Assembly: GCA_016932095.1 (NCBI GenBank)
Contig: JAFGDN010000026.1
Span: 4,692 to 68,691 of the forward strand
DNA length: 64,000 nt
DNA from: Sedimentisphaerales bacterium
GTDB lineage: Bacteria; Planctomycetota; Phycisphaerae; Sedimentisphaerales; Anaerobacaceae
Direction: 5' to 3'
Positions 55,428 through 60,056 of the stretch are shown here, one piece after another (the stretch's first letter is position 1; each line of letters begins with the position of its first letter). A program made the position numbers and the translations under genes. The notes beneath the pieces are model-generated. The model was not told where the DNA came from, made no database searches, and saw only the letters and a program-made list of their open reading frames with translations.

Positions 55428-55557
55428 GTGGTTGCGTTATACGGTTGCGGTTGCGCGGCTCGTAACGGTTGTGTCAAACGTCTATCGTCGTTAAAACGCA
55501 ACCGTAATACGATTGACGAAACGAGCATCGCAACCGAAAGACGAAGGACGCAACCAC
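55428..55557 (+). repeat. 130-nt dyad-symmetric GGTTGCG-heptamer element, copy R1
   Basis: Outer stem GTGGTTGCG / CGCAACCAC. Inner stem CGGTTGCG.CGGCTCGT / ACGAGC.ATCGCAACCG. The heptamer occurs 4 times forward in the 5' half and 3 times reversed in the 3' half. Confidence 0.6.
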
Positions 55558-55620
55558 TTTCAAATTTCGATTCGGCGGGGTAAACCCCGCCCTACAAAAG
55601 TAATTCTGAGAGCGGGAAAT

Positions 55621-55707
55621 GACGTTTTTTACCGGTTTTTTACGGTTTTTTGTACTAAAACGCGGCGTTTTTAACGGTTTTCATCGGCTTTTATTACTTT
55701 TTTGACA
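55621..55707. repeat. Helically phased T-tracts (degenerate ACGGTTTTTT decamer repeat)
   Basis: T-tracts start at 55625, 55636, 55646, 55668, 55678, 55689 and 55698. An A-tract sits in the missing slot at 55657. Spacings are 11, 10, 11, 11, 10, 11 and 9 nt. Confidence 0.65.
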
Positions 55708-58900: not shown

Positions 58901-59340
58901 AGATACCAATGGCTGCGATAGACCTCGGTTTGCCCGCCTATATACCCAAAAATTATATACCAGCCGACAGAAGCCGGATGGACGCCTATCGCAGAATCGC
59001 GACGGCAAAGACAGCAGAGGAGCTAAAACAGTTAGAAGGAGATTTTGCGGATGTTTATGGCCCATTGCCGGCGGAGGTCAAACTGCTTTTGGATATCGGA
59101 GAATTGCGGATTGCCGCAAGTAAATCAGGGCTAAAGAACATCGTGGCCCACGGCGGCAACCTCGAATTATCGTTCGCGGATGGCGCTGCCCAAAACGCAA
59201 AACGCTTGCTCAAAAACATTGCCGTAAGATATACTGTAGCTGATGAAACAACCGTATATCTGCATTTGGCGGAAAACTATTTCGAGCAACGGACTTTAAT
59301 AGCGTTTCTTCGCAAACTGTTAGGAGTCAAAAAACAATGA
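55912..59340 (+). CDS. mfd: Transcription-repair coupling factor
   Basis: CarD-like GDYVVHTSYGIGKY, helicase motif I LCGDVGYGKTE, motif II DEEQRFG and the TRG/TD regions; 1142 aa. Confidence 0.95.
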   Translation: MELGRDKSFNEIAGRLETTGGSTPRQDSWRAELTTKGVVKVAGTWGSFARLLAVNLSKQVKRPILYICPHIDDADNAVDDLQTFGSTLSTSLKTGSLTTGGATDVQLLPAWEGEEEIADATDEIRAHRLRIVARCSSLASREQDHNVIIVTSIQAISQAAPTPKSIEQSMLQLEAEGSASPEKIIEWLVSNGFERVDKIDLPGQFARRGGIIDIYAPLLDSRFPKRARRSAPCRWNDGGVRGIDCGSDDAQAIRVDFFGDTIESIRQIDLDTQRSTNSLESAAIVSVIAGQSPESRELFLNILPEDSVVILDEPADCQEVARVYFERAEDKSRLYDWPEIHNGLNRLAQLEISRFATGEPEECIKLDIRSVQQYQHKSASLWAGHKEAIAELVGAAKQQQDVLLYCEAEAEIARISEIIMQEHGEIPRRFKLLKGFVHQGFAMPALNTIIISHHELFGQFALRRRTRPMRQTAPIDTLEDLQQGDYVVHTSYGIGKYIGSETIREKDSQNEYLTIEYDGGVKVQVSVNNIALVQKYIGTSPGRPKLSKVGSKRWLRQKEKVEKSVKDLAVELLDVQARRQAMGGFEFSPDTNWQREFEGTFPYQETPDQTTTVAQIKQDMGQPTAMDRLLCGDVGYGKTELAMRAAFKAVENGKQAAVLVPTTVLSVQHARTFIERFADFPVVIEALNRFRTAREAKDIIERTGAGKVDILIGTHRLLSGDVKFKDLGLVIIDEEQRFGVEHKEKLKKLRVNVDILTMTATPIPRTLHMAMLGLRDISSLATAPLDRRSIVTTVTPYSEETIRKAIIRELNRQGQVFFVHNRVKTIDKKAWEIQKLAPDAKVAVAHGQMAAHELEQAMIDFVLGKTQVLVCTTIIESGLDIPNANTMLIDDADRFGLAELHQLRGRVGRYKHRAYAYMLLPASRPITPIAARRLKAIEEYSHLGAGFRIALRDLEIRGAGNILGAEQSGHIQMVGYQMYCELLANAVRHIKGESVEQIPMAAIDLGLPAYIPKNYIPADRSRMDAYRRIATAKTAEELKQLEGDFADVYGPLPAEVKLLLDIGELRIAASKSGLKNIVAHGGNLELSFADGAAQNAKRLLKNIAVRYTVADETTVYLHLAENYFEQRTLIAFLRKLLGVKKQ

Positions 59341-60056
59341 GAAACCTGATATATTCAGATGGTTGTGTTGAACGGTTGCGGTTACGCGGCTCGTTATGTC
59401 AATCGTCGAACAGTTGCGTATATGTGCCGAGGGACGTCCAACGTAACCGAAACGAGCGGCGTTACCGATGGACGCTGCACGCAACCATTATCGCACTGTG
59501 TTTGATGACCTGCTTTGCCTTTGCGGTTAGTCCCTCTGAAAGGCAGCAGCTCGATAATTTCAAGGTCTCGACGCTAAAGGGGCTGACAGGAGTTGCAGTA
59601 ACAGTCAAAATAATTCGCGACGACCCCGCGACTTTATCGTTATTAAAGGAAGGCGACCTTTCCGGAGAGGTCGAATATGCCCTGCAAAAAGAAGGTATAG
59701 AGGTCCGTAATCCCACCCCCGACGTGGGGCTTTATGTAGTATTGGTCAAGGTCGCCGGAGGCGGCCCGGATAAGATGGAATTGTCCATAGATGTCCAGTC
59801 GTCGCTTCGGCAGATGGTGTATTTAATGAGGGATTCGACGATAAAGACAGAGGCGCAGACCTGGCCTGCCGTCGGCCAGAGCCGGTTCGGCGTTGTTTCA
59901 ATTGCCATTGCTAAAAGTATGATTTCAAGAACAGTCAAAGAGCAGGCAAAAGAGTTCGCAATTGATTACAAGGCGGCGAACCCGAAAAGGTCAACCACAG
60001 AGGAAACTTCGACAAGCTCAGGGCAGACCGCAGAGAAAAGAATAGAACAAAAATAA
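59337..60056 (+). CDS. Exported or membrane-anchored hypothetical protein
   Basis: A signal-like RRYRWTLHATIIALCLMTCFAFA|VSP sequence is present. The ATG overlaps the mfd stop (ATGA). The first ~50 codons lie over repeat R2, so the true start is uncertain; an in-frame GTG lies at 59424. Confidence 0.45.
   Translation: MRNLIYSDGCVERLRLRGSLCQSSNSCVYVPRDVQRNRNERRYRWTLHATIIALCLMTCFAFAVSPSERQQLDNFKVSTLKGLTGVAVTVKIIRDDPATLSLLKEGDLSGEVEYALQKEGIEVRNPTPDVGLYVVLVKVAGGGPDKMELSIDVQSSLRQMVYLMRDSTIKTEAQTWPAVGQSRFGVVSIAIAKSMISRTVKEQAKEFAIDYKAANPKRSTTEETSTSSGQTAEKRIEQK
59359..59488 (+). repeat. 130-nt dyad-symmetric heptamer element, copy R2
   Basis: Same length and orientation as R1, with arms about 80-90 percent identical by hand alignment and a diverged centre. 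Outer stem ATGGTTGTG / CGCAACCAT. CGGTTACG pairs with CGTAACCG, covarying with the CGGTTGCG / CGCAACCG pair in R1. Confidence 0.6.

Follow-up and report, generated by a model that had tools for sequence, protein, structure and literature searches.

The window considered here is a stretch of 64,000 nucleotides (C50:4692-68691) from the metagenome-assembled genome (MAG) of a Phycisphaerae bacterium, G000, a 96%-complete assembly of 2.95 Mb in 94 contigs with 49% G+C. It contains two copies, R1 and R2, of a GGTTGCG hairpin repeat that lie on either side of mfd, the gene of the transcription-repair coupling factor. R1 and R2 are probably separate insertions of one gene-less, non-autonomous hairpin repeat, which would be the short version of a cassette of the intervening sequence (IVS) type that carries a PF05635 gene between its arms. 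The family is present in many copies, is placed between genes, has been amplified patchily and in particular lineages, is missing from the orthologous sites of relatives, is spread over distant genomes, and is physically linked through its arms to PF05635.

R1 (55428-55557, forward strand) is the best-scoring copy in the genome, with a profile match at 55424-55562 of 133 bits (nhmmer, E = 3e-39). R2 (59359-59488, forward strand) is a second full-length copy (profile match 59355-59492, E = 2e-27). A sequence-only reading of the window had reported both as related elements and quoted their stems and their repeated GGTTGCG/CGCAACC motifs, all of which are present. In R1, the left (alpha) arm at 55428-55462 reads GGTTGCG-TTATA-CGGTTG-CGGTTGCG-CGGCTCG; the centre at 55463-55521 holds the inner stem CGGTTGTGT/ACGCAACCG, a loop and the asymmetric bulge ACGATTGACGAAA; and the right (beta-prime) arm at 55522-55557 reads CGAGC-A-TCGCAACCG-AAAGACGAAGGA-CGCAACC, all on the forward strand. 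The two copies are identical at 30 of 35 positions of the left arm and 26 of 36 of the right. They were described as lying in direct orientation with diverged centres, which is correct for the outer arms only: the 59-nt central module of R2 (59394-59452, minus strand) is the reverse complement of the R1 centre, with 38 of 59 positions identical ungapped when flipped, whereas the direct alignment is gapped and scores -2. The bulge, ACGATTGAC(G/A)(A/T)AA, is found in the right arm of R1 and, as its complement, in the left arm of R2. Judged by these alignments, the difference between the centres is evidently an inversion and not plain divergence. Both copies had also been described as long imperfect hairpins. 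R1 folds into a strong three-stem hairpin (-60.2 kcal/mol, z = -5.8, matched by 0 of 200 dinucleotide shuffles), whereas the fold of R2 is weaker (-50.5 kcal/mol, z = -2.1, with 6 of 200 shuffles as good). Just to the right of R1, at 55574-55595, is a small palindromic repeat, GGCGGGGTAAACCCCGCCCTAC, with nine genome copies at two mismatches or fewer; a similar sequence stands beside the Y1_Tnp gene discussed below.

The search for further copies proposed with the sequence-only reading was productive: BLAST and three iterated rounds of nhmmer yielded about 49 loci in the 2.95-Mb genome, in both orientations, 29 of them near full length. The element measures about 125-135 nt and comes in length classes of 130 and about 100 nt; some copies lack about 30 central bases, others have gained small additional hairpins, and still others consist of one arm. 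Under the crude ORF model used to judge placement, R2 is the only copy that does not lie between open reading frames (ORFs), and the median distance of the copies to the nearest ORF end is 14 nt. The spacers are tandem for 27 copies, divergent for 12 and convergent for 8, and those in tandem spacers show no orientation bias relative to the genes (17 in the same direction, 10 opposite). The family consensus is GGTTGCGTTAAACGGTTGCGGTTGCGCGGCTCGTATCGGTTGCGT - loop - ACGCAACCGTAAGACGATTGACGAAACGAGCAGCGCAACCGATAGACGAAAAACGCAACC, with a GGTTGCG-type motif three to four times per arm and CG dinucleotides every 5-7 nt in a period that is not strict. The heptamer-like motif had been singled out as a meaningful unit, rightly, and its suggested role as a protein-binding array is compatible with the results obtained. 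Two arm types, alpha and beta, are conserved and are not exact complements of each other, so that one strand scores 30-40 bits better; mosaic alpha/beta combinations occur in other copies. Identity within the genome reaches 88% for the best pair and averages 74%, and the nearest relative of most copies is in the same genome. As had been supposed, the element belongs to no known Rfam family: nothing matches the region at E <= 1, the only other match being a weak and irrelevant one to a miRNA elsewhere.

Each copy had been thought to follow a -10-like hexamer. TATAAT is indeed found at 55421-55426, 16 nt from TTCGAA at 55399-55404, but such hexamers are not part of the element across the family. 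They are not enriched at its ends (5 of 29 left ends and 6 of 29 right ends, compared with 13.6% of random intergenic 20-mers), and the TTCGAA/TATAAT pair fails a consensus promoter scan that itself finds no more sites than in shuffles. The promoter was therefore rejected as a component of the element. The single metatranscriptome of the same study contains nothing from this organism over the region, and its DNA run offers only contigs, which break at R1.

Evidence for insertion comes from the mfd locus of relatives. mfd (55912-59340, forward strand), whose orthologues are 75-79% identical in all 23 congeners, is a bystander between the two insertions. It is preceded by a divergent gene of an EamA-family transporter (54382-55284, minus strand), with a spacer of 627 nt here and about 200 nt in relatives, and followed by orf239 (59337-60056, forward strand), which encodes a conserved exported protein with no Pfam match and whose ancestral ATG overlaps the mfd stop (ATGA). 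Mfd orthologues were located in the 23 congeners, and 19 loci plus three more were read, giving 22 relatives. The eamA-mfd-orf239 synteny is kept in 22 of 22, and the element is at neither site (E <= 1). These relatives include G001, G009 and G040, where the mfd locus is empty although 17-43 copies are found elsewhere in the genome. In the eamA-mfd spacer, blocks held in common with relatives flank the stretch that contains R1 and other repeats. R1 and R2 are thus probably independent insertions, neither would have a dedicated role at mfd, and their symmetry around the gene is coincidence; a functional tie to mfd is not supported, as the 22 syntenic relatives have neither copy. A composite transposon carrying mfd was likewise rejected, because every congener keeps the eamA-mfd-orf239 synteny while lacking the repeats there.

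R2 was correctly placed within the ORF after mfd. In relatives, orf239 begins M-(T/R)-K-T-L-I-R-Y-C-C-I-T-A-L..., a signal peptide. Here, from the same ATG, it begins MRNLIYS, continues with 40 extra codons through R2, and resumes at IIALCLMTCFAFAV-SPSE. By alignment of DNA and protein with at least 15 orthologues, R2 is an in-frame insertion that separates the n-region of the signal peptide from its h-region, and it would lengthen that peptide by about 40 mostly basic residues with the frame intact. Repeats in frame within signal peptides, such as R2, can inflate predicted proteins, a point of practical concern for annotation. Rickettsia palindromic elements (RPE) are palindromic repeats that lie in frame within protein-coding genes. 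R2 is like them in that it sits in frame in such a gene and is translated as extra residues. It has no sequence relation to RPE, however, and R2 alone among the roughly 49 copies here lies within a gene.

Other heptamer hairpins occur around mfd in congeners. In G010 (L150), just after the mfd stop, a different hairpin with A-rich heptamers forms an independent in-frame insertion exactly where R2 interrupts the orf239 signal peptide in G000; its A-rich arm encodes the lysine-rich KKAKIKNQKVK, and its T-rich arm encodes LFLHFTFCILLL, a hydrophobic core. Short gene-less ACAGAGG/GACAGAA heptamer hairpins occupy the 60-90 nt directly upstream of the mfd ATG in G017 (L156) and G010 (L150), and their unit is similar to GACAGAT, the heptamer found in the Coxiella IVS.

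The number of copies per genome ranges from 0 to over 40 among the 23 congeners, with 43 in G001. A 22-nt core pattern is found in more than 108 contigs of species-representative genomes, most of which hold whole units. MAG names are inconsistent at NCBI; for instance, G001 (L073) is labelled 'Pirellulales' and G017 (L048) 'Phycisphaerales', names from different classes, yet both belong to one GTDB genus. Lineage distance was therefore judged by Mfd identity, such labels being unreliable and organism names unsuited to host-range inference. Full-length copies 80-83% identical to R1 are found in genomes (8-26 copies) whose Mfd is 41-51% identical, compared with 57% within the order. Set against the low Mfd identity, the identity of these distant copies argues for horizontal spread. 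A phage vector was considered and rejected, as IMG/VR gave a single match, 25 nt long and due to chance, in a GC-rich contig.

The gene-bearing form of the element is exemplified by locus L092 and by L140 of the congener G014. At both, only a few bases separate the end of the alpha arm from the ATG of a 144/152-aa ORF, and the 3' end of this ORF lies within the beta-prime arm. The two ORFs belong to PF05635 (66 and 68 bits, where the cut-off is 33.8), with 2GSC as the nearest solved structure. PF05635 is the four-helix-bundle family that comprises the ORFs of 23S-rRNA IVSs and Avd, a protein of diversity-generating retroelements (DGRs) (DGR/Avd literature). A search of 201 genomes of the order located the cognate protein subfamily (130-150 aa) at 19 loci. 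At 16 of these, both arms are present, or the expected one at contig ends, with constant polarity and the alpha arm 5' of the ORF. The three exceptional loci have the most diverged proteins (57-65%), and their repeats, of the GGTATCG/GGTAACG or GCTGGAx type, are likewise related but altered, so that divergence of the arms goes with divergence of the gene. The cognate gene is also present between bracketing arms in G001 and G221 (83% and 80% identity), and the Mfd of G221 is 51% identical. The cognate ORF is found in 3 of 6 genomes with at least 17 copies, compared with 1 of 18 with 11 or fewer (one-sided Fisher p ~0.035, calculated by hand and with thresholds chosen post hoc).

The centres of R1 and R2, about 59 nt each, contain no ORF, which is why each is called a 'gene-less derivative'. 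The place of the gene is taken in the short form by a loop of about 20 nt, AAAACGTAAATCGTCGTTAAG. One short-form junction appears to be common to the copies of many genomes, and the short form would thus have spread as such, like a miniature inverted-repeat transposable element (MITE) relative to its parent. The relation between gene-bearing and gene-less forms is, in this respect, evidently MITE-like. G000 also encodes seven other PF05635 proteins, which are at most 41% identical to the cognate type. All seven genes lie between inverted 7-nt arrays, each with a unit of its own: CGTGACT, CAGCGGA, ACAGAGG, ATCAGGA, TCAGATT, TTGxCGA and TTTATTA.

Gene-bearing cassettes of this kind resemble the 23S rRNA IVSs. 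The helix-45 IVS of Coxiella burnetii consists of a stem, tandem heptamers before the start codon and an S23p ORF, and is excised by RNase III; the paper describing it repeats the old idea of mobility (PMC4990558). The gene-bearing form is built like the IVSs of Coxiella and Leptospira, with a long stem at its ends, short tandem repeats immediately before the start codon, and a loop that contains a PF05635 ORF (PMC4990558). Unlike those IVSs, R1 and R2 lack an ORF and lie outside rRNA: R1 occupies a spacer, R2 a protein-coding gene. Their family, moreover, attains about 50 copies per genome and crosses distant lineages. The assembly of G000 contains no rRNA gene. The 23S rRNA genes of congeners (L180-L185) differ by a hairpin of 64-92 nt at one variable site, at alignment columns ~1800-1910 (2996 compared with 3060-3088 nt), and the insert of G017 has A/T-rich arms of roughly 7-nt period (TTATTTA TGATTTT CAATTTT CTATTTA).

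Other origins for the R1/R2 family have to be weighed. One is that the family is a classical MITE, an internal-deletion derivative of an insertion sequence of the DDE type that is moved by the parental transposase through terminal inverted repeats. Size, terminal inverted repeats, copy number, insertion polymorphism and the 130-nt and about 100-nt classes all speak for it. Shortness, many copies (about 49) and presence/absence differences are thus found as in MITEs, but a duplication of fixed length and a transposase-coding parent are not: no consistent target duplication is seen at 60 element ends, no longer element with these ends carries a transposase, and the sole longer form holds the gene of a 150-aa four-helix bundle. 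This origin is very unlikely. Comparable families are the Correia elements of Neisseria and the enterobacterial repetitive intergenic consensus (ERIC), imperfect palindromes of about 100-150 nt with many intergenic copies in long and internally deleted classes, which insert near genes and can be co-transcribed with them. The R1/R2 family is similarly palindromic, intergenic and present in many copies near genes, in two length classes. Unlike Correia and ERIC elements, it has neither a TA nor another target duplication, its parent encodes no known transposase, and its arms are not simple terminal repeats, each being an array in which a 7-mer-like motif is reiterated.

Another candidate is an element of the repetitive extragenic palindrome (REP) or REPIN type, moved by a REP-associated tyrosine transposase (RAYT), an IS200/IS605-like Y1 transposase that acts on hairpins in single-stranded DNA. 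REPINs consist of two inverted repeat units that form a hairpin, occur also as single units, and are amplified in genomes in which a single-copy RAYT gene is bracketed by the repeats. The R1/R2 family shares with them the hairpin of two inverted units, the single units, the bracketed protein gene and the amplification. A RAYT would account for the long imperfect hairpin of two inverted arms, the single-arm 'half' copies, the lack of target duplication and the intergenic placement, and the genome does have one Y1_Tnp gene. However, that gene (C56:18983-19435, 25.8 bits) is flanked by an unrelated REP, GGGGTGCCCGCGTGAGGAATGC, of which three copies lie beside it, and no GGTTGCG motif is found within 1.5 kb. 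Furthermore, the gene inside the arms elsewhere is PF05635 and never Y1_Tnp. As the sole Y1_Tnp gene carries a different REP, the RAYT link was rejected, and movement of the family by this route is very unlikely. The locus itself (C56:18850-19650) is a RAYT-like gene with three REP copies of its own, GGGGTGCCCGCGTGAGGA(A/T)TGC.

A third possibility is retro-mobility, in which the transcript hairpin would be copied by a reverse transcriptase recruited by an Avd-like PF05635 protein, as in DGRs. PF05635 is the family of Avd, a protein that the DGR reverse transcriptase requires to make cDNA (DGR/Avd literature), and the copies are unusually diverged. Against this, there is no RVT_1 match anywhere in the genome and the variation is not focused on adenine, conservation being 0.795 in A columns and 0.794 in T columns. 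Spread by a DGR-like reverse transcriptase was rejected on these two grounds and is highly improbable.

The sequence-only reading had preferred selection on structure, on the basis of an inner-stem pair that changes from G-C to A-T between R1 and R2. This was evaluated with 51 near-full copies (18 from this genome and 33 from others), aligned to the sequence profile and not to the structure; pairs of the three main stems were counted, and the 3' partners were shuffled 1000 times as the null. Stem cells are paired in 87.5% of cases, compared with 87.8 +/- 0.3% in the shuffles. There are 13 double-sided changes where 20.6 were expected, and this observed number is equalled or exceeded in 990 of 1000 shuffles. 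R1 and R2 do differ by the G-C to A-T change, but the pair does not covary across the 51 copies (G:C 28, A:C 12, G:T 7, A:T 4; Fisher p = 0.47), and at four other polymorphic pairs A:T is absent or occurs only once. G:T and A:C mismatches are about equally common, so RNA of neither strand is favoured. A covariance test over more copies had been named at the outset as able to overturn the structural reading, and it came out against it. No selection on base pairing is apparent, and the arms are evidently conserved as sequences, each separately. That R1 and R2 are a structured cis-regulatory RNA, a small RNA or a cruciform kept by pairing and regulating mfd and its neighbour is accordingly the least credible of the alternatives: R1 does fold far better than shuffles and one G-C to A-T difference separates the two copies, but there is no covariation, no favoured strand, no orientation bias relative to genes, no Rfam match and no element at the mfd locus of 22 relatives.

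Several points weigh against the reading of R1 and R2 as gene-less forms of a mobile PF05635 cassette. Movement has never been directly seen, and a search of metagenomes for an empty allele of the R2 site gave 0 matches, with no filled/empty polymorphism within a population. No target-site duplication is consistent at 60 element ends or at 29 profile-anchored ends, the exact junctions being beyond resolution at the divergence of the relatives. No cognate ORF is present in this 96%-complete assembly despite 49 copies. The element is accompanied by no known transposase, there is none between the arms, and we know of no catalytic activity for PF05635. The 7-nt periodicity of the arms is loose, with CG dinucleotides 5-7 nt apart, whereas the genome's other PF05635 genes are bracketed by strict heptamer arrays. 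Finally, the copies in this genome are old, so that activity here may be long extinct.

For a mobile PF05635 cassette with a gene-less short form, arms that are conserved in sequence without covarying, and that diverge in step with the gene, point to recognition of the arm motifs by their specific sequence. Movement would thus involve a trans-acting factor that recognizes the arm repeats, for which the cognate PF05635 protein, together with host enzymes, is the best candidate. Insertion would take place without target duplication. Recombination between the inverted arms could then flip the inner module, as in R2, and the mosaic alpha/beta copies would fit such exchange. A transcribed copy is predicted to form a long duplex and, by analogy with IVS stems, a substrate for RNase III.

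More broadly, PF05635 proteins could be sequence-specific partners of their own arm repeats, the two together forming widespread mobile hairpin cassettes that need no known transposase. We regard this generalization as possible but doubtful. If true, rRNA IVSs, cassettes in operon spacers and many 'orphan' heptamer hairpins would form one class, and the GGTTGCG family would be its first case, testable at the bench, with a gene-bearing master and an amplified gene-less form across distant lineages. For thirty years, to our knowledge, 23S rRNA IVSs and the S23p/PF05635 ORFs within them have been described as 'perhaps once mobile' with no evidence, their mobility being proposed and never demonstrated, and we know of no agreed origin for the heptamer arrays of bacterial spacers. 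An arm sequence common to dozens of copies, clear comparisons of filled and empty sites at a conserved locus, near-identical distant copies and a gene-bearing form supply the kind of evidence that was previously missing. With most subscription journals outside its scope, the literature found on the motif, or on PF05635 with repeats, seems to consist only of papers on the Coxiella IVS, on DGRs and Avd, and on heptamer arrays; within that scope, no paper was found that describes a gene-less derivative of such a cassette in many copies and across lineages.

Heptamer arrays have been described in other bacteria. The short tandemly repeated repetitive (STRR) sequences of cyanobacteria and the GGGNATC repeats of Xanthomonas and Nostoc are 7-nt arrays, often capable of forming hairpins, that lie tens of bases from ORF ends and are transcribed (PMC2670836, PMC4692102). 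G000 is rich in arrays of this kind, with 265 of period 7, and the R1/R2 copies too lie close to ORF ends. Unlike the present work, those papers name no associated gene family and no conserved composite unit of 130 nt that spreads between genomes (PMC2670836, PMC4692102). In G000, the arrays of period 7 make up 72% of 370 tandem arrays (at least 26 nt and at least 3.5 copies), with dozens of units (AAGACAG, AAAATAG, AAATTCT, AAATCAT, ACAGAGG and others), and many of them form inverted pairs 3-100 nt apart.

A second family of gene-less hairpins is found in the window. At 29420-29552, the leuC-leuD spacer is taken up by an A-rich 7-nt array (AAAATTA AAAATCA AAAATTA AAATGCA...) together with an inverted, T-rich partner. 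Members of this family are also present at 28092-28142, 30038-30071 and 49121-49154, and single arms follow leuA and leuD. Elsewhere in G000, two 206-aa HNH_3 endonuclease genes lie between heptamer arrays (C11:5080-5861 and C27:44320-44989). The arrays of the C11 gene are inverted copies of each other with two mismatches, and those of the C27 gene are unequal in unit length.

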